Positions 3,572 to 61,397 of a stretch of 64,000 bases of DNA are shown piece after piece. Source of the stretch: Candidatus Curtissbacteria bacterium RIFOXYA1_FULL_41_14. Lineage in GTDB: Bacteria; Patescibacteriota; Microgenomatia; Curtissbacterales; GWA2-41-24. The notes beneath the pieces are model-generated. The model searched no databases. It saw only the letters and a list, made by a program, of their open reading frames with translations, and was not told where the DNA came from. Position 1 is the first letter of the stretch, and the number at the start of each line of letters is the position of its first letter. Made by a program: the position numbers and the translations under genes. Location of the stretch: the NCBI GenBank assembly GCA_001775095.1, contig MFCA01000029.1, positions 153,173 to 217,172 of the forward strand. Direction: 5' to 3'.

Positions 3572-5058
3572 TTAGAAACCACCTCATAAAACCTCATAAA
3601 ACTGTTACCTATCCCCTTTTGGTATTTGCCAATTAATTTAAGATGGGGATTACCTGGATCATCCGGAAGTTTCTGGTTTTCGTTGAAAATAAAAAATGTC
3701 TTTTTAACTTTGGCTGCGTCCAAGACTTGCTGTGGAATATCACTTACAGGCCAGAAACCATGTATCTCGATATTTTTTTCGCCGTAAAAGTAAATTAAAA
3801 GTGAATAAGGTAAAAGCCCAAAGGTACCTTCAGTCCCAACATAGACTGGCTGGCTTTTTGTTTCATGTTTTAGGATCGTCACAATTTCCTCTATACCATA
3901 ACCGGCTGGCCAGTCATTTAAATATTGACCAAGATCTGAATCGGCGATATTTGCCTTTGGAGGGTTTGTTAGCAATTTATACGAATTTATAGCTGGAAAA
4001 ATAAAAATGACTGCAAAAATCATCCACAAATATTTCGAGTAATTTTTCCACTTAATTAAATTTATGACACCAAAAGATACTAGGATAATGATATAAGGAA
4101 AATAAAAAAGCATAAAACGGGGGTATAGGACTTTATTAAAAATGCTTTCAGCCAGAAAGGGTGCCAAAACATAAACTGAAAGCAGAATAACTGGAAGATT
4201 TCGTTTAATTAAACCCCAGACAATAACCAAAATAGCAATTAAGGTCAGTGGCCAACCATTATATTGGACAAGCCATGAAATTAAGGCGTGAGGATTGCTG
4301 AGTAACTGGATAAATGGGTTATTTATAATTTCGCTCACGCTTCTAATAAATTCTGAGTTTTTGCGTGCAATCATGTAGAAAAGTGGGGATAGGCGCAAGG
4401 AGTTATAAATTACAAATGCCAATATTGCGGTAATTAAAGTCAAAAATAACCACCTTATAAATCTTTGAGACCTATTCTTTTTGCTAAAATCGAAAAGCAG
4501 TAAGGAGAATGGTAATAGATAAAGAAAGAAATTTGCGGATGATTTGGTAATCATACCAAGCCCAATGGCAAATCCGTTTAACAAGGCTGTATCAAGTTGT
4601 GGCGACTTTATCATTTTCGCGGAAAAGTAAACCGCCCAAATGCCTAACATGGTAAGCAATGAATCAAAAAGAGCCATCCGATCATAGAGAAGAGTGAAGG
4701 GCAAAATAATATAAAGCAAACAGGCCAGAATTGCTGTTTTTTTATCAAACAAGTATTTGGACAGGAAATAAATTCCGACTAGCGAGCCGAAACCGGCAAA
4801 AACTGAAACAAGTCTTGAGGCTACAAGTGGATCGGATATGAATTTCTGAAAAATCGCCGCAATCCAAATAAACAAAGGCTGTTTCCCATCCTCAAGAGAA
4901 CTAAATCTATTAGCAGGATCATGAAGTGCTACTTGAGCCCAATATGTATAAATAGCTTCATCAGTAAAAATTGGAATTATCTTTAGGTTTATTAGTCTGG
5001 TTATAAAATAGGTGCTAACCAAAACAAACCAAATTAAAAGCTGGAGTTTCGACTTCAT
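3568..5058 (-). CDS. GT-C membrane glycosyltransferase, ArnT/GT83-like variant of the GT39 family
   Basis: 496 aa. 'FTDEAIYTYWAQVALHDPANRF...DGKQPLFIW' resembles the ArnT DE...KPPL arrangement. 12 or more predicted TM segments. Confidence 0.55.
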   Translation of the reverse strand: MKSKLQLLIWFVLVSTYFITRLINLKIIPIFTDEAIYTYWAQVALHDPANRFSSLEDGKQPLFIWIAAIFQKFISDPLVASRLVSVFAGFGSLVGIYFLSKYLFDKKTAILACLLYIILPFTLLYDRMALFDSLLTMLGIWAVYFSAKMIKSPQLDTALLNGFAIGLGMITKSSANFFLYLLPFSLLLFDFSKKNRSQRFIRWLFLTLITAILAFVIYNSLRLSPLFYMIARKNSEFIRSVSEIINNPFIQLLSNPHALISWLVQYNGWPLTLIAILVIVWGLIKRNLPVILLSVYVLAPFLAESIFNKVLYPRFMLFYFPYIIILVSFGVINLIKWKNYSKYLWMIFAVIFIFPAINSYKLLTNPPKANIADSDLGQYLNDWPAGYGIEEIVTILKHETKSQPVYVGTEGTFGLLPYSLLIYFYGEKNIEIHGFWPVSDIPQQVLDAAKVKKTFFIFNENQKLPDDPGNPHLKLIGKYQKGIGNSFMRFYEVVSK

Positions 5059-6830
5059 AGAGTTTTCTCTCCAATATCAAAAACTGGTGATAGGGAAAGA
5101 TCATAAATAGTACGAAGTTTTTTGGCATCCTGGGGAAGTTGGCCTGATTGAACTACATACAAAGTCCTACCCACAACAGGAATTTGGCCGGGATTATCTG
5201 AGAATTTAAATTTATCAAAACCTTCAACATCGATGAAAAAGAACTGGTTTTTGGTGACTTGAGCACTTTGCCAATATTTTTTGGGGTCAAACTGCGTGTA
5301 CAAAAGGAAGTAAATATAAGGTCTCCCAAGAGCTTTGGTAACTATAATCTGGTCAACTTGATCATATAAAGGCTTGATATCCTGTACTGCTTGTTTATAA
5401 CCGTATTGCCAATCCCCCGAATAATTTATTGGCCAGTGGAGATAGTACATATGTAAATAGTACAGAAAGTTAAGAGTCAAAAGTCCCGCCGTCGCTAAAG
5501 CTATGGCGGACAAGAAAAAGGCAGGAGTAATTAGTAGTTTTTTATATCTGATCACTTGATAAAGACTATAGAGACCAATTGCAGAGAGTATCTGGTAAGT
5601 TGGCAGAATATGAATCATTCTTAGCGCATGAGGCGTTTCTCGTGCCGTCGCGGGTCCAAGAGGCGAAATAAGTAACCACCCAATAATTAAAAAGCGATAC
5701 TTTTGTTTAGTAGCAAACAAAAAGTAGATTCCTACAAGAATAAGCGCGAGATCTATATAATAAAGCTCTCCTGTATCTTGGACAGAGAGCCGCGGATTAA
5801 CATCACCTTTCGTAAAAAGAAAACGCGGATTGAACGCATCAAAATAATGAGTGAGATATTCATATGAATAGAAAAGGCGGCGATTATGAATAATATTTGA
5901 CCACCATGAAAAATTATCTTTTTGGCGATAATGAGTTGATTGATTTATAGGATCAAGATCTTTAAAAATTGTAACTTCATCGAATCGTAATCTGCCTTCG
6001 ATAGTTTGCGTGATAAAGACAAAAAGCGGCCAGAGCAGAAAGGCAGCAATCAAAGCTGTTGCCACGACAACTTTGGTTTGGGTAAGAATCTGTTTTCGAA
6101 ATTGGATCACCAGCACTATAAGTATGAAAGGAACAAACAAACGTTGCCCGGTAAAAGTATATATTCCGGCAAGAAATGAGAGCATCGATGGAAGAATCCA
6201 AATGGGGTGATCTTGGGCGAATTTTACAAAGAGGAAAATTCCTAAAACAGAGAAAAAGAGGCCTAGATTTGCTTCGAAAGCTCCCCGGGAAAACTGCAGG
6301 TGCCAAGGGGAGATTGCAAGGAAGAAAGCGGATAGAAGAGCAATAGCTTCTGGATTTCCAATTTCAAATTTCAAATTTCTAATTTCAAATGCAAGCAAGC
6401 CAGCTTGATTCACTCCCGGAGTGTGCCAGGGCTTAACTTTGCGCACTCCGGGAGTGTGCAAAGACTGCCACCCGCTACCATTCTCGAGAAGTTTTTTGGT
6501 TAGCGGATATGTCAGCAGGACAGTCAAGACCCCGAAAAATGCTGATGGAAACCTTATCGCAAATTCATTGAGGCCAAAGACGGCAATTGAGGGCACCGTT
6601 GCATAAATATATCCAGGAGGCTTGTAATCGCCAAAGGCCGCAAAATTTGTAAAAGGCAGAAATTTTCCATGTTCATCGCGAGCTGATTTTAAAATTGAAT
6701 AAGCGTTATAGCCAAGTGACGCTTCGTCCCAATAAAGAGAGGGTGGAACGGATGCAAGTTTATAAAATCTCAATACTGCGGCAATAAAAATGATAACAAC
6801 GAGTAAATAAAAATTTAAACTTCTTGGCAT
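5055..6830 (-). CDS. GT39/PMT_2-like membrane glycosyltransferase, paralog A4, carrying a ~45-aa repeat-derived loop insertion
   Basis: 591 aa. 'YWDEASLGYNAYSILKSARDEHGKFLPF'. Insertion 'GSGWQSLHTPGVRKVKPWHTPGVNQAGLLAFEIRNLKFEIGN' lies before the conserved 'EAIALLSAFFLAISPWH'. Confidence 0.7.
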   Translation of the reverse strand: MPRSLNFYLLVVIIFIAAVLRFYKLASVPPSLYWDEASLGYNAYSILKSARDEHGKFLPFTNFAAFGDYKPPGYIYATVPSIAVFGLNEFAIRFPSAFFGVLTVLLTYPLTKKLLENGSGWQSLHTPGVRKVKPWHTPGVNQAGLLAFEIRNLKFEIGNPEAIALLSAFFLAISPWHLQFSRGAFEANLGLFFSVLGIFLFVKFAQDHPIWILPSMLSFLAGIYTFTGQRLFVPFILIVLVIQFRKQILTQTKVVVATALIAAFLLWPLFVFITQTIEGRLRFDEVTIFKDLDPINQSTHYRQKDNFSWWSNIIHNRRLFYSYEYLTHYFDAFNPRFLFTKGDVNPRLSVQDTGELYYIDLALILVGIYFLFATKQKYRFLIIGWLLISPLGPATARETPHALRMIHILPTYQILSAIGLYSLYQVIRYKKLLITPAFFLSAIALATAGLLTLNFLYYLHMYYLHWPINYSGDWQYGYKQAVQDIKPLYDQVDQIIVTKALGRPYIYFLLYTQFDPKKYWQSAQVTKNQFFFIDVEGFDKFKFSDNPGQIPVVGRTLYVVQSGQLPQDAKKLRTIYDLSLSPVFDIGEKTL

Positions 6831-51650: not shown

Positions 51651-52628
51651 TTAGTGTTTCGTGCTTCGTGCTTCGAATTTTAATTTACTTCTTTCGTATT
51701 CAATTGTATCAGAAAGCGTTTTCAAAAGGGGTATTCTGGGTTGCCAACCGGTTTGTTTTTTAAACTTGTCAAAATTGCAGTAGATTTTTTCAATCTCAAC
51801 CGGGCGCAGTAAACTTGGATCTTTTTCGATTTTGATTTTGGCCGAGGAGAGTGAAAGTAACATGTCAAGTATCTTACGGATCTGAATCGATTTTCCACAA
51901 CCAATGTTGTAAACTTCACCGGGTATACCACTGTCAAGTGCTAAAAGATAGGCACGGACCATATCTCTTACGTCAGTGAAATCACGAAACGAGTTAAGAT
52001 TGCCTACTTTCATTGTCCCTTTACCTTGTTTCTCTAAAGAGACGATTCGTGAAGCAAATGCTGATACTACAAAATTAACAGACTGTCTGGGACCGATATG
52101 ATTGAAGGGTCTCACGCGTACTATATGAAGCTTATGATGCAGGAAAAATTGTAAACCCAGCATATCCTGAGCGACTTTCGAAACTGCATATGGAGAATTT
52201 GGCTTTAGGGGCGTATTTTCATCTGCCGGTAAATACTTTTCATCAATCTGGCCGTATTCGTCTGCCGAGCCGATAACCAGAATTTTTGCTTTTGATCTTA
52301 TTTTAACTAACGATTCTAAAAGATTGATTTGGCAGAAAATATTATTCTGTAGAGTTTCTTTGGGGTTTTTGAAGCTATCGGCCGGAGATGAAAAAGCGGC
52401 TAAATGAAAAACGTAATCTGGATTTATAAGTCTAACTTCTTTTTCTACTGCCTTTGTATTTTGTAAATCGCAGGCAACTACTTTTATTTGAGCTTTGATT
52501 TGCTTTAGATTACCTGTTGGATGACTTGAAAGAAAAAAACCGCAAACTGAAATTTTTTGAGAAAGTAACAATTCTGCCAGGTGACTGCCGGCAAACCCAG
52601 CAATACCGGTAATTAGGGCTTTTTTCAT
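51651..52628 (-). CDS. rmd: GDP-4-dehydro-6-deoxy-D-mannose reductase (Rmd-like)
   Basis: 'ALITGIAGFAGSHLAELL', 'SPYAVSKVAQD', 'RPFNHIGPRQ', 'YNIGCGKS' closely follow Rmd signatures. Adjacent to gmd. The 3' end carries a (GTGCTTC)x3 repeat at 51655-51676. Confidence 0.7.
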   Translation of the reverse strand: MKKALITGIAGFAGSHLAELLLSQKISVCGFFLSSHPTGNLKQIKAQIKVVACDLQNTKAVEKEVRLINPDYVFHLAAFSSPADSFKNPKETLQNNIFCQINLLESLVKIRSKAKILVIGSADEYGQIDEKYLPADENTPLKPNSPYAVSKVAQDMLGLQFFLHHKLHIVRVRPFNHIGPRQSVNFVVSAFASRIVSLEKQGKGTMKVGNLNSFRDFTDVRDMVRAYLLALDSGIPGEVYNIGCGKSIQIRKILDMLLSLSSAKIKIEKDPSLLRPVEIEKIYCNFDKFKKQTGWQPRIPLLKTLSDTIEYERSKLKFEARSTKH

Positions 52629-52717
52629 GGTTCGAATTCCTCACCATGACACTGAGCGAAAGTCGAATATGTCATGGTTCGAATTCCTCACCATGACACT
52701 GAGCGAAAGTCGAATGT
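52626..52717. repeat. Perfect-ish 46-bp tandem duplication (x2) between ugd and rmd
   Basis: catggttcgaattcctcaccatgacactgagcgaaagtcgaatrtgt x2 with one mismatch. Each unit contains an 8-bp inverted repeat (gtcatggt...accatgac). Confidence 0.85.
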
Positions 52718-54020: not shown

Positions 54021-54179
54021 AGGTTAAAGTTGCGAAATTTAAATATCAAAACTCAAGATACTTGTATTAGTATAATTAGTATGAATTAGTATATTAGCAT
54101 CGATACCAATATACGAATGGATACTAATCATACAAATCGTTTCTACAAAAGTTAATCTATTTTAGCTAAATATTAACTT

Positions 54180-55098: not shown

Positions 55099-55160
55099 CC
55101 CACCCCTGGGGTGAGCGTAGTTTTTCCTGGAGCACACCCCAGGGATGTTGCTGGACACCT
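55099..55160. repeat. 57-bp REP doublet: CACCCCTGGGGTG and its inverted partner
   Basis: ccacccctggggtgagcgtagtttttcctggagcacaccccagggatgttgctgg. Near-identical to 61340-61397. Confidence 0.8.
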
Positions 55161-57608: not shown

Positions 57609-57653
57609 ATAGAGTAATTATATCTTTTGTGCTCCTTTTTTTCTAACTGAAGA

Positions 57654-58407
57654 CACCCCTGGGGTGGATTTATATTGGCACATCAGGTAAAATAGGTCAG
57701 TTACTATGCCTCGAAGAAATCTTGTCCTGGCAAAGGATGAAATTTATCACATATTCAATCGATCCATTGCTCGAGAAAACATCTTCTCTAATAAGATTAA
57801 TCTTAAAAAGGCGTTGGAAATTCTTCATTTTTATCGTTTTCCTCAGCAGCTGAGGCTTTCTAAATTTAAGACTTTGACTGAAATCCAAAAAAAAGATTAC
57901 CTTCTGGCATTGAAAGATAAGTCACCTCTTGTTGAGATATATAGTTTTGCTTTAATGCCAAATCACTATCATTTATTGTTAAAACAACTTCAGGATAATG
58001 GCATTGTTCGATTTATTGCAAACTTCCAAAACAGTTTTGCTAAAGTATTCAATCTTAAAAATGAACGAGATGGGGCAGTTTTTCAAAATTCCTTTAAGGC
58101 AAAAAGGGTTGAAACCGATGAACAATTTATCCATATTTCGCGCTATATACATTTGAATCCAGTAACTGCTTACCTGATTAACTTTAACCAGTTGGCAAAT
58201 TATCCCTGGACATCTTTCCCAATATATGTAAATGAGGATAAAAATTCATTTGTAGCTGTTAATTTTCTCCTACACTTATTTGGATCTAAAGACAAATACG
58301 CTGATTTTGTTGCAGATCAGGTAAGCTATCAGCGGGAATTAGCTTCGATTAAAGATTTGATTATCGATTAAATCCTGGTGTGTCAATATAGAGTCACCCC
58401 TGGGGTG
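57654..58407 (+). mobile_element. RAYT/IS200-like Y1 transposase gene bracketed by two same-orientation REP palindromes (CACCCCTGGGGTG)
   Basis: REPs at 57654-57666 and 58395-58407. CDS 57706..58371. Confidence 0.6.
57706..58371 (+). CDS. REP-associated tyrosine transposase / IS200-IS605 TnpA-like (HUH Y1) protein
   Basis: 'LMPNHYHLLLKQ' HUH motif. 'SRYIHLNPVTAYLI' has the catalytic Tyr in a Y-x2-NP context. It is the only plus-strand gene in a ~24-kb minus-strand block. Confidence 0.65.
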   Translation: MPRRNLVLAKDEIYHIFNRSIARENIFSNKINLKKALEILHFYRFPQQLRLSKFKTLTEIQKKDYLLALKDKSPLVEIYSFALMPNHYHLLLKQLQDNGIVRFIANFQNSFAKVFNLKNERDGAVFQNSFKAKRVETDEQFIHISRYIHLNPVTAYLINFNQLANYPWTSFPIYVNEDKNSFVAVNFLLHLFGSKDKYADFVADQVSYQRELASIKDLIID

Positions 58408-58421
58408 TGTTAGTAAGGTGA

Positions 58422-60752
58422 TTGACATGTACAGGGAAGATAGTGTTTGCTGGAAATAGGTTGATTTTTAAAGTAATTTTAACAGTCCTAATAGCCCTTT
58501 CTATCACATTAACCAAACCGACAGATTCTCTTGGCATAGATTACAATTTAACAGGACAATGGGCTTGGTCAGACAGAACCTCAGGAGGCAATTATTTTTA
58601 CGGAACGGCAGAGATAAGGCATGACGGGACTACGTTAACCCTTACATGGATATGGCATGACCAATTCCAATCTGAATGGACAGGAGGAGGATTTACTCAA
58701 AACGAAACTTTTTTCCTTGATGGCACTTATAACAACGGTCAACTCACTGCTCACTGGGATGGGGTTATTTTACAAAATGGTAACCGGTTAGAAGGAACAT
58801 GGGCTCAATTCGACAGCGCAGGGAATCCTGGCGGCAACGGAACTTTTACTGCTCAAAAATCGGGCCCTTTACCAAGTGCAACACCATTACCGACCCCAAG
58901 TCCATCGCCTTCCCCAAGCCCCAGCCCCAGTCCTACCCCTACCCCATTTTTGGATTTGCCGTGGGATTATGAGGGGGAGAAGTTGAGCTTTAACGATGCG
59001 GCTTTGGCGATCAATTCATACTTTGATCATACTTATCCATTGCTCAGCTTAAGCTTATCTGAGCCAGATGTTAATAAAAACCAAATAACTACCTTCGAAA
59101 ATGAAAATAGTACTTCGAAAAGCTATTCTAGCCATGACGGATATGATTATGGTAGAAGTGCAGGAGCAACTATTGGCGATCCAGTCTTAGCAGCAGCAGG
59201 CGGTTGCGCTTCGTATTTAAAAACCGGAGCAGGCGGTAACACAATCAGAATTGATCATGGCAATCATTATCAGACAAGATACTTGCACTTACAGGACGAT
59301 GGTTTAATCACCAAATCAACCGCTTGCGTAAATGTTATTCAGGGCCAGCAAATCGGCAAAATAGGATCAACCGGTAATTCAACAGGAGCCCATATTCACT
59401 TCATGGTTGTAGAGGACAAAAATGGAGACGGAGATTTTGATGATAATATCCCGGACGGCGTAACCGACCCCTTTGGTTGGCAAAGCGATGCAACCGATCC
59501 GTGGCCGGATTATTCATGGAAATACGAAGGCGAAGAAAAAGATCGGACAGGCAATGCCAGTTTCTATCTCTGGACAACGGCAATTGCCAACCTTTCTGAC
59601 CAGTTAACTTCAAACGGCGGATTCTTTGAACTTGAGCGCTACAGGTTAAATTTTCCTCAAGACGCAACTGGCCAAGATCTAAACCTGGAAATTCAAGCAG
59701 AACCAAATGCCAAGCCTTCAAATTTGCTTCATTCTATTGGTTCTACAATAAAAGTCACAGCCAAAGACTTATCCGGTAACATTGTTGACAGTTTTGCGGA
59801 TTTCTTCACAGTGACAATTGATTTTAACCCCTTTGACATAAGCAGTTATGACCCGAACTCGCTTGCTATTTACTCAAGCGAAGATGGTGTCAATTGGACA
59901 AAAGAGGAAACGACTGTCGATCTAAACGAAAAGACTGCATCCGCGCAGCTTAATCATTTAAGCTATTTTGCACTCATGGCCCAAAGGCTGGATACTACTG
60001 CTCCAATTACAACTGCTGTTTTGGTTGGTAATCAGGGAGAAACTAATTGGTTTCGATCTGACGTTCAATTAACTCTCGACGCTGCGGATAATCCGGGCGG
60101 TTTAGGAATCGATTACACCATGTACAAAATCAATGATCAAGACTGGCAACAATATACGCCATCTCTCACATTTAATACCGAGGGCAGTTATGAAATCGAA
60201 TTTTACTCGGTCGACAATGATGAAAATATCGAGGATGTAAAAAGTATTACTTTTGACATTGACAAAACTGTCCCCGAAGCAAAAGTATTTATTGATCAAA
60301 ACTTAAATGACCTGGTAGTTATTGGGGTTGACCAAAACCAGACTATAGTTACGAGAGCCAGCAACCATGAAACAAAGAAAAGAGACGACGCAATTTACAC
60401 GATCGCGGACCAGGCCGACAACACCCTGAAACTTGATGTACGAGACCGCGACAGGTTAAAGCGGGATAGATTTGAAATATTCTCGTTGACTTATAATCAG
60501 GATCTTGAAGTTACCACCTCTGATAATCATTACAACGTGTTTTACCAAGGTAGGAAAGACAAACTCAATGTCAAAGAGCAAAATTTTGAAATCGACGGAG
60601 AAGTAAGGATAAGAATTAAATATGACAGGAAAAAAGACCAAAGCACTATTATCACTAAAGAGGCCGGTATGGAAAAAGTTAAAGAGATAAAAAGCGGGTT
60701 AATTCTATTGTTGCTTAATACTAATAGTGGTAATCTGGAATATGGATACTAA
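58422..60752 (+). CDS. Secreted multidomain M23 (LytM-type) peptidase with (PS)n/(PT)n linker
   Basis: Signal anchor. 'PSPSPSPSPSPSPTPTP'. 'HDGYDYG...IDHGNHYQTRYLHL...GSTGNSTGAHIHFMV' has the HxxxD and HxH M23 motifs. About 450 aa extra C-terminal. Confidence 0.7.
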   Translation: MTCTGKIVFAGNRLIFKVILTVLIALSITLTKPTDSLGIDYNLTGQWAWSDRTSGGNYFYGTAEIRHDGTTLTLTWIWHDQFQSEWTGGGFTQNETFFLDGTYNNGQLTAHWDGVILQNGNRLEGTWAQFDSAGNPGGNGTFTAQKSGPLPSATPLPTPSPSPSPSPSPSPTPTPFLDLPWDYEGEKLSFNDAALAINSYFDHTYPLLSLSLSEPDVNKNQITTFENENSTSKSYSSHDGYDYGRSAGATIGDPVLAAAGGCASYLKTGAGGNTIRIDHGNHYQTRYLHLQDDGLITKSTACVNVIQGQQIGKIGSTGNSTGAHIHFMVVEDKNGDGDFDDNIPDGVTDPFGWQSDATDPWPDYSWKYEGEEKDRTGNASFYLWTTAIANLSDQLTSNGGFFELERYRLNFPQDATGQDLNLEIQAEPNAKPSNLLHSIGSTIKVTAKDLSGNIVDSFADFFTVTIDFNPFDISSYDPNSLAIYSSEDGVNWTKEETTVDLNEKTASAQLNHLSYFALMAQRLDTTAPITTAVLVGNQGETNWFRSDVQLTLDAADNPGGLGIDYTMYKINDQDWQQYTPSLTFNTEGSYEIEFYSVDNDENIEDVKSITFDIDKTVPEAKVFIDQNLNDLVVIGVDQNQTIVTRASNHETKKRDDAIYTIADQADNTLKLDVRDRDRLKRDRFEIFSLTYNQDLEVTTSDNHYNVFYQGRKDKLNVKEQNFEIDGEVRIRIKYDRKKDQSTIITKEAGMEKVKEIKSGLILLLLNTNSGNLEYGY

Positions 60753-61286
60753 ATGACTAAAATTCTCCTGTCGGTCTTAATCATTACTGCTGTTTTAGTA
60801 GGCGGTTATTTTGGCTATAAACAAATTAGCCAGACGCCAGAAGGAAAAACAACACCTGCCAGTACAATAACGCCCGTAACCAGCCCAGGGAATCAAGAAC
60901 TAAAAACTTTCAAATCAAAAAATATTCAATTCGCTGTTCAAGTTCCTAAAAATTTTGAAGTCCAAGAAAAAATTGCCTATGTCGATTTAATATCTAGTGT
61001 GGGAAGGATAAATTTAAGCAGGAATGCAACAAATTTTGATTCGATCAAAGATTACTTAAATGATTTTGATTCTAAAAGAGAAGTAGAGGTGAGTAATGAA
61101 GTAATTATAAATATCGGTGCTTATGATTCTATAAAAAGAATTGAGAATTTTAATATAGGCCCTATTGATGAACAAAACTTATATTTTATCTATGTAGATA
61201 ATTGGGTCTATTCAATCTCTACATCTACCCAATCCCTTTACCCTGTCCTTGACCAAATTGCCCAGTCCTTCCGCTACATACCATAA
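60753..61286 (+). CDS. Membrane-anchored or secreted small protein, hypothetical
   Basis: 177 aa. N-terminal TM 'ILLSVLIITAVLVGGYFGY'. Confidence 0.4.
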   Translation: MTKILLSVLIITAVLVGGYFGYKQISQTPEGKTTPASTITPVTSPGNQELKTFKSKNIQFAVQVPKNFEVQEKIAYVDLISSVGRINLSRNATNFDSIKDYLNDFDSKREVEVSNEVIINIGAYDSIKRIENFNIGPIDEQNLYFIYVDNWVYSISTSTQSLYPVLDQIAQSFRYIP

Positions 61287-61339
61287 AGAACCAGAATTGG
61301 AATTAGGTTCTTTATATTAAACGATTTACAGCCTTATGG

Positions 61340-61397
61340 CTCACCCCTGGGGTGAGCATAGTTTTTGCTGAAGCGCACCCCAGGGGTGTTGCTGGGT
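61340..61397. repeat. 57-bp REP doublet, second copy
   Basis: ctcacccctggggtgagcatagtttttgctgaagcgcaccccaggggtgttgctgg. Confidence 0.8.

Follow-up and report, generated by a model that had tools for sequence, protein, structure and literature searches.

A 64,000-nucleotide stretch of the genome of Candidatus Curtissbacteria bacterium RIFOXYA1_FULL_41_14 (contig MFCA01000029.1), which we call the window, carries a gene for a Y1 HUH tyrosine transposase that is bracketed by two copies of a short GC-rich palindrome. We believe that this locus is probably a REPtron or TIRtron, that is, a single-copy and selectively maintained class-2 Y1 HUH gene whose 38-nt inverted ends contain its cognate palindrome, accompanied by a few nearby satellite doublets that resemble REPINs. 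Systems of this kind, built on a REP (repetitive extragenic palindrome)-associated tyrosine transposase (RAYT) or on one of the related TIRYT proteins, are known; the host lineage, which belongs to the candidate phyla radiation (CPR, or Patescibacteria), does not seem to have been described before as carrying one. To our knowledge, work on RAYT/REPIN systems has been confined almost entirely to Proteobacteria and Cyanobacteria, and to complete genomes. Our search for RAYT, REP or IS200 in CPR/Patescibacteria, within the library of papers available to us, found no description of the clade that we report here.

A class 2 transposase with a TnpA-REP-like fold

The first-pass annotation of this DNA had proposed a 221-aa plus-strand open reading frame (ORF) with HUH and tyrosine motifs, and the ORF and both motifs are indeed present (Table 1). 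The HUH motif NHYH spans residues 86-89, with histidines H87 and H89 encoded at 57964-57972, and the catalytic tyrosine Y147 (58144-58146) lies within RYIHLNPV at residues 146-153, of which YIHLNP forms residues 147-152. An FQ motif occupies residues 126-127. The match to the Pfam model Y1_Tnp (PF01797) that had been anticipated reaches 34.7 bits, above the gathering cut-off of 23. Y1_Tnp is the sole Pfam family matched at E <= 1, and the C-terminal tail gives no match to a helix-turn-helix (HTH) domain or to Bac_DnaA_C. Across 45 homologues, H87, H89, Y147, N151, P152, V153 and S170 are invariant, and W168 and T169 are conserved in at least 90%.

The TnpA-Y1 proteins have been split into 12 subclasses (Quentin et al. 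2018, PMC6006769), and the same survey gives the tyrosine motif as Y-x3-NP in class 2 and Y-x3-Q in IS200 (PMC6006769). The protein carries the class 2 form in YIHLNP, where N151, P152 and the following V153 are among the invariant positions. Searches of the PDB with the 221-aa protein, whether by single sequence or by profile, returned nothing useful, and fold comparison alone was informative. The AlphaFold (AF2) model has a predicted local distance difference test (pLDDT) score of 91 and contains an extended helical insert between strand 1 and strand 2 as well as three C-terminal helices (residues 186-218). Its top PDB match by Foldseek is E. coli TnpA-REP bound to a REP hairpin (4ER8; E = 3.2e-8, template modelling (TM) score 0.68 on the target), with the TnpA proteins of ISDra2 and IS608 ranked lower at E about 1e-5. 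A profile alignment with E. coli RayT made by hhalign pairs PNHYH with PEHMH, FQ with WQ, RYIHLNPV with DYIYINPV and PWTSF with PFSTF; the identity is only about 25%, over 96 columns.

The gene is under strong purifying selection. The ratio of nonsynonymous to synonymous substitution rates (dN/dS) is about 0.1: comparison with a 94%-identical relative gives 0.11, and a further pair gives 0.08. The identical protein and locus are present on many groundwater metagenome contigs and on GCA_001775235.1.

Palindromic ends and their association with the gene

The 13-nt palindrome CACCCCTGGGGTG stands 39 nt before the ATG and again 23 nt after the stop codon. Two such flanking copies had been annotated earlier and their presence holds, but they are really the cores of longer inverted ends, which measure 38 nt and are 82% complementary. 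Outside the ends, exact copies begin at 55101 and 61342, a copy in complement form at 61376 and a copy with one mismatch at 55135. When up to one mismatch is allowed, the window holds 11 strand-matches to CACCCCTGGGGTG, whereas 0.01 are expected from 100 shuffles. Across the family, the last segment of the left end takes the form TTGACACC..GG, which combines a -35-like hexamer with a degenerate REP.

Table 1. Coordinates in the window of the transposase gene, its inverted ends and the doublets
Feature	Position	Strand	Details
Y1 HUH tyrosine transposase gene, RAYT/TIRYT type	57706..58371	+	221 aa; identified by motifs, profile matches and fold
Left inverted end	57650..57687	+	CACCCCTGGGGTG (57654-57666), 8-nt spacer, then TTGGCACATCAGG
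Right inverted end, mirror of left	58374..58411	-	CCTGGTGTGTCAA, spacer, REP palindrome (58395-58407); inward on minus strand: GGGGTGAC
REPIN-like inverted doublet, cognate palindrome	55099..55160	.	arms 55101-55116 / 55132-55147; intergenic, between rmlD-like gene and rmlC (minus-strand genes)
REPIN-like inverted doublet, cognate palindrome	61339..61397	.	arms 61342-61357 / 61373-61388; between convergent genes
Variant doublet CACTCCCGGAGTG...CACTCCGGGAGTG	6411..6456	.	arm spacing as in the cognate doublets; in frame within PMT/GT39 glycosyltransferase ORF 5055-6830 (-)

The clade to which this gene belongs is large. At least 2,138 clusters at 90% identity match the protein at E <= 1e-3 (the best 120 listed are mostly 221-225 aa), and a library of 50%-identity representatives contains 239 matching proteins at E <= 1e-30 and 15,828 at E <= 1e-3. 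From this family we sampled 80 homologous metagenome loci, together with several more obtained by an exact-protein look-up. Nearly all gene copies in these loci are bracketed by a GC-rich palindrome that is specific to the lineage, is held at the same distance and has compensatory changes in its arms; examples are CACCCCWGGGGTG, CCACCTTCGAGGTGG, AACACCGGGTGTT, CGATCCCGGATCG and CCGAGCCTGGCTCGG. Typically, one palindrome ends 40-47 nt before the ATG and a second copy lies just past the stop codon. A strict test, in which a perfect-stem palindrome must be common to both flanks, was passed by 55 of 78 flank pairs (52 of 74 in another run), and most of the pairs that fail it pass by eye. Exact CACCCCWGGGGTG occurs in 821 kb of CPR loci almost solely as pairs about 750 nt apart around the genes. 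Moreover, two paralogues that lie 5 kb apart on one contig (L197; 189-827 and 5975-6610) each have their own distinct palindrome, AACCTCGGAGGTT in one case and CCACCCTTGGGGTGG in the other. Pairs of divergent paralogues 5-30 kb apart are seen on some contigs, and the examples are L197, Ga0209515_10000006 (L131, L153) and L142 20307-20660.

The two arms of the palindrome covary. In an alignment anchored on the independent motif TTGAC, double compensatory changes are found in all 8 stem pairs, and 81.5% of cells are paired, compared with 66% after shuffling. The covariation score is 0.43, compared with 0.18 for shuffled alignments and 0.08-0.18 for slid controls, and none of 500 shuffles reached it. 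The palindromes of the family differ in the length of the loop (1-5 nt) and of the stem (5-12 bp), and the symmetry is kept.

Covariation between arms would be equally compatible with a symmetric double-stranded site, and it is here that a different reading of the palindromes has to be weighed. They might be regulatory or terminating elements, such as an operator for a dimeric DNA-binding protein, insulators or intrinsic terminators, placed beside a Y1 gene that has some other cellular role, with nothing being mobilised. The upstream palindrome adjoins a conserved -35 element, the lone palindrome is a poor hairpin as single-stranded DNA (ssDNA), and both flanking palindromes, like the first arm of the doublet at 61.3 kb, precede T-rich tracts and receive terminator-like scores. 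However, a structure that varies in loop and stem and retains its symmetry is a better fit to the family than a fixed dimer site. Inverted doublets of the palindrome also occur in frame within coding regions, as insertions relative to homologues, the T-run of the 55.1-kb doublet is on the non-coding strand of its operon, and the catalytic HUH and tyrosine residues are invariant. We consider a purely regulatory or terminating role very improbable.

The ends of some family members show a further peculiarity. Outside the flanking palindromes, the outer half-palindrome and its outer flank are duplicated in tandem, with junctions in or next to the loop (L136 5960-6000 and 6760-6800; L213 3095-3135; also L146, L184, L189 and L205). 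Extra half copies in 54 loci comprise 10 of the same arm, for which we estimate an expectation of about 0.3, versus 2 of the opposite arm. Either nicking in the loop or slippage at hairpins could have left these duplications.

A discrete cassette, probably maintained in single copy

Two 92%-identical proteins of the family (L136 and L137) are encoded in unrelated contexts, and the nucleotide homology between the two loci, 86% over about 800 bp, has boundaries that coincide exactly with the upstream and downstream palindromes. Because homology runs only from palindrome to palindrome, we regard the palindrome-gene-palindrome unit as a discrete cassette. Relatives at 62-71% identity occupy four different genomic contexts, namely rml / M23 in this window and, in the relatives, VWA / mraY-ftsW, a site upstream of L11-L1-L10-L12, and TPR / yebC-ruvC. 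In three closer pairs, at 75-94% identity (window/L213, L169/L174 and L210/L212), synteny is kept. The gene is present once in about 82 kb, which comprises the window with 9.7 kb upstream and 8.5 kb downstream, and no near-identical gene duplicates were found on any one contig, where additional copies are divergent paralogues only. RAYT genes are expected to have a low copy number, divergent paralogues and mostly vertical descent, and this locus agrees with that expectation.

Homology that stops at the palindromes, an occurrence in four genomic contexts, and a size and single-ORF layout like those of IS200 are what one might expect of an active, autonomous and minimal IS200-like element of about 0.8 kb. 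If so, the palindromes would be the ends of the element, the doublets would be its deletion derivatives (miniature inverted-repeat transposable elements, MITEs), and there would be no domesticated RAYT-type gene. The likeness to IS200/IS605 TnpA proteins such as those of IS608 and ISDra2 (subclass 1.1) includes the Y1 HUH fold and a hairpin near each end of a discrete unit. In contrast to those elements, the motif here is the class 2 Y-x3-NP and not the Y-x3-Q of IS200 (PMC6006769, Table 1), TnpA-REP is the best fold match, the ends are inverted and are not same-strand hairpins, and tnpB is absent. Additional arguments against an autonomous element are that only one copy is present in about 82 kb, that long contigs bear divergent paralogues only, that dN/dS is about 0.1 with synteny kept at 75-94% identity, and that the doublet loops are unlike the inner ends of the cassette. 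We judge this alternative to be quite unlikely, and we retain the selectively maintained REPtron/TIRtron as the preferred explanation.

Satellite doublets and their insertion into genes

Further copies of the palindrome had been noted as inverted pairs at two sites. Both are doublets, and we add a third, variant doublet at 6411-6456. In each of the inverted pairs at 55.1 and 61.3 kb, 16-nt arms enclose a loop of 15 nt, and a 57-nt element is common to both pairs. As ssDNA, the doublets reach folding energies of -15 to -20 kcal/mol, with z from -3 to -5.6. Strong hairpins are formed by the doublets only, and the hairpin predicted earlier for the REP therefore holds for the pairs but not for the single palindrome, which is weak. 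A search of the whole window against Rfam at gathering thresholds gave no match, so the doublets do not belong to a known RNA family. Their derivation from the cassette by internal deletion was considered and rejected, since the doublet loops and the inner ends have no similarity beyond the 13-16-nt arms.

The variant doublet is formed by a variant palindrome, CACTCCSGGAGTG, with compensated changes in its arms, and falls inside an in-frame insert of about 48 aa that is absent from most PMT homologues. Two more CACTCCSGGAGTG doublets are located about 5 kb past the 3' end of the window (L221 3154-3190 and 3326-3371), one within a 205-aa ORF and the other just after it, and variant doublets are thus locally at least as frequent as cognate ones. 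The total in the 82 kb is 2 cognate and 3 variant doublets. Given that in other CPR loci (L184, L186 and L206) it is divergent paralogues, at 41-43% identity, that are bordered by CACTCCSGGAGTG, a second paralogue may exist elsewhere in the genome. Another doublet, this one of the cognate CACCCCWGGGGTG type, is in frame in the tRNA-guanine transglycosylase (TGT) gene of a relative (L212 6125-6163). It encodes TPGV...HPRGV, and its position is a variable loop, where it takes the place of a variable segment seen in L210. We take the in-frame doublets, which appear as insertions relative to homologues, together with the doublet within the 205-aa ORF, as evidence from sequence comparison that doublets move.

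The loop that follows KKLFE in the PMT/GT39 protein has received unrelated in-frame inserts in several lineages, and most homologues have no insert there. In the window, the insert (around 6330-6470 in 5055-6830, minus strand) consists of the variant REP doublet and a FEIRNLKFEIGN repeat. Among the loci compared (L217 10001-11716, L218 1985-3748 and L219 1607-3361), the inserts of L217 and L218 are themselves long inverted repeats. This loop looks like a recurrent landing site of hairpin elements.

In the 61.3-kb doublet, the palindrome stem of the first arm reaches 9 bp (61339-61366; GCTCACCCC.GGGGTGAGC) and is followed by ATAGTTTTTG; the terminator scan counts 8 pairs and a 3-nt loop. This arm and its T-run score as a plus-strand intrinsic terminator that would serve a plus-strand three-gene unit whose first gene is the transposase. 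The transposase had been described as the only plus-strand gene, which is incorrect, as a Peptidase_M23 gene (58422-60752) and a 177-aa ORF (60753-61286) come next, both on the plus strand. Terminator-like use of the doublet arm would be a possible exaptation.

A probable promoter in the cassette end

Across the family, TTGACA(CC) is located directly 3' of the upstream palindrome and is followed, after 16-18 nt, by TAnnnT, which ends 5-10 nt before the ATG. Of 82 distinct upstream flanks, 50 contain exact TTGAC, where 1.5 would be expected, and 44 contain TTGAC together with TAnnnT, where 0.14 would be expected. A Shine-Dalgarno-like motif is present in none of these 82 flanks (L128-L216 and window 57667-57705). 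The messenger RNA (mRNA) is probably leaderless, because the promoter ends so near the ATG and no Shine-Dalgarno motif accompanies it. This pattern in the flanks suggests a gene family in CPR that is expressed as leaderless mRNA from a promoter built into the cassette end. Covariation with the palindrome arm (L190, L199 and L204) makes the segment that follows TTGA look like a degenerate second copy of the palindrome; the mirror of this segment is located between the stop codon and the downstream palindrome.

Relation to known Y1 systems

The protein matches, by motif comparison and not by phylogeny, the type of subclass 2.1 and not that of a canonical RAYT. Subclass 2.1 is RAYT group 1 of Bertels et al. 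2017 (PMC5581495) and corresponds for the most part to the TIRYT/TIRtron class that Di Nocera et al. 2013 (PMC3733652) defined. Its second signature is NH[YF]H, FQ (or W[EQ]) and Y[IV]HLNP with a median length of 238 aa (PMC6006769, Table 1), which NHYH, FQ and YIHLNP in a 221-aa protein fit exactly in motif. A C-terminal extension that includes a conserved serine (WTSF) is likewise shared with the subclass. TIRYT genes have been described as RAYT-like and flanked at a fixed distance by inverted repeats that share GGGGWSAS, some of them self-complementary and dimeric, with few dispersed copies (PMC3733652). The locus described here is similar in that inverted repeats flank the gene at a fixed distance from the coding sequence, in that the repeats are self-complementary and dimeric, as are some terminal inverted repeats (TIRs), and in that the flanking repeat has a low-to-moderate copy number. 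Both the doublet arms (GGGGTGAG) and the inward reading of the right end (GGGGTGAC) agree with GGGGWSAS, to which the left end GGGGTGGA has one mismatch; many clade members have GGTGG or GGTGT instead.

There are also differences from the TIRYT description. Subclass 2.1 has been reported without REP-like hairpins (PMC6006769), whereas each end here has a perfect palindrome core that has undergone compensatory evolution across the clade. The three-helix tail gives no Pfam match to the HTH or Bac_DnaA_C-like domain that would be expected of the subclass, and the CPR lineage is absent from the published surveys.

E. coli TnpA-REP/RayT (4ER8; subclass 2.2, RAYT group 2) is the best structural match, its HUH, W/FQ, Y-x3-NPV and PxS/TxF motifs align with those of our protein, and it too is encoded by a single-copy gene between inverted cognate palindromes that also occur as inverted long-hairpin doublets (BIME/REPIN). 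However, the E. coli protein has 165 aa, whereas the CPR protein has 221 aa with the helical insert and the three-helix tail. The E. coli REP is a long imperfect stem with a GTAG guide at its foot and is present in hundreds of copies; here it is a short perfect 13-nt palindrome that has no such guide and is seen in a handful of copies. With regard to its palindromes, the CPR clade sits between the published descriptions of REPtrons and TIRtrons.

Observations that weigh against a REPtron/TIRtron

Several of our results count against the preferred reading. The NCBIfam RAYT equivalog model NF047646 (REP_Tyr_transpos) scores the protein at 49.4 bits, below its cut-off of 80, and five other clade members score 41-53, all below the cut-off as well, whereas E. 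coli RayT scores 179. A caveat to the RAYT label in particular is that the motif signature is that of subclass 2.1/TIRYT, a RAYT relative described as TIR-associated and having few repeats. No GT[AG]G tetranucleotide is present at the foot of the hairpin, where the sequences immediately 5' of the arms read GAAGA, AGAGT, GCC, GCT and CAGCAA. The lone 13-mer forms only a weak ssDNA hairpin of 5 bp at -4 kcal/mol (z about 0), and shuffled sequences fold as well. The -35 hexamer in the window is TTGGCA and has no good -10 at 17 nt, so the promoter inference rests on the family.

Dispersal, too, is limited. Both cognate doublets are within 3.5 kb of the gene, the roughly 82 kb hold few dispersed copies, and just 7 extra cognate copies were counted in long homologous loci that total 413 kb. 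No insertion polymorphism was seen among 8 near-identical strain contigs (at least 99.7% identity), in which all six palindrome copies are fixed. The matches listed by a contig scan with CACCCCTGGGGTGNGC were chance ones from genomes of high GC content and included no CPR genome of this lineage. The RAYT-type label given in the first-pass annotation is supported with refinements: the class-2 motif, the TnpA-REP fold and the flanking palindromes agree with it, the equivalog score and the hairpin foot do not, and the dispersed copies seen are sparse.

Proposed mechanism and significance

The catalysis, the substrate strand and the cleavage sites are those that we infer by analogy with E. coli TnpA-REP and IS608 TnpA. 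On this basis, the protein would bind the hairpin formed on ssDNA by the palindrome, and especially by the doublet. H87 and H89 would hold the metal, and the strand would be cut and rejoined through a 5'-phosphotyrosine link at Y147. Doublets could thereby be moved or copied, and the whole palindrome-gene-palindrome cassette might be moved on rare occasions. The upstream palindrome adjoins the conserved TTGACA-17-TAnnnT promoter, and binding of the protein at this end could autoregulate the gene.

A more divergent possibility, which we regard as rather unlikely, is that these genes form a CPR-wide class-2 Y1 clade that works unlike E. coli TnpA-REP. Such a clade would stand apart in four ways. 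The gene and its palindromic ends, about 0.8 kb in all, may itself be the relocating cassette. Expression may depend on a promoter in the end and a leaderless mRNA, probably with hairpin-dependent autoregulation. Satellite doublets may settle repeatedly, and in frame, in protein surface loops of gene-dense genomes. Finally, the enzyme may nick inside the hairpin loop and not beside the hairpin. Loop nicking is suggested by the tandem duplications of the outer half-palindrome, because their junctions are in the loop. Rolling-circle Rep proteins nick within a hairpin loop.

Returning to the REPtron/TIRtron that we favour, this finding does not overturn current understanding. It does reveal a large clade in ultra-small, gene-dense CPR bacteria that has a very regular cassette architecture and is under strong purifying selection. 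The family offers a compact natural set of cognate protein-palindrome pairs for the study of hairpin recognition by Y1 enzymes, and it suggests that, in reduced genomes, REPIN-like doublets can give rise to in-frame insertions in proteins.

Other repeats near the locus

Two additional repeats are located in the same region of the window. Just downstream of the stop codon of the UDP-glucose dehydrogenase gene, a 45-nt unit occurs twice in tandem within the intergenic interval 52625-52715 (TCATGGTTCGAATTCCTCACCATGACACTGAGCGAAAGTCGAATrTG). Both units contain a palindrome, TCATGGT...ACCATGA, along with a GGTTCGAAT motif that resembles a tRNA T-arm; an ARAGORN scan of this repeat detected no tRNA. 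Between the start of the UDP-glucose dehydrogenase gene and the end of the rmlD-like gene, a 72-nt AT-rich palindrome (54066-54137) has a perfect centre and 36-nt arms that are 81% complementary.

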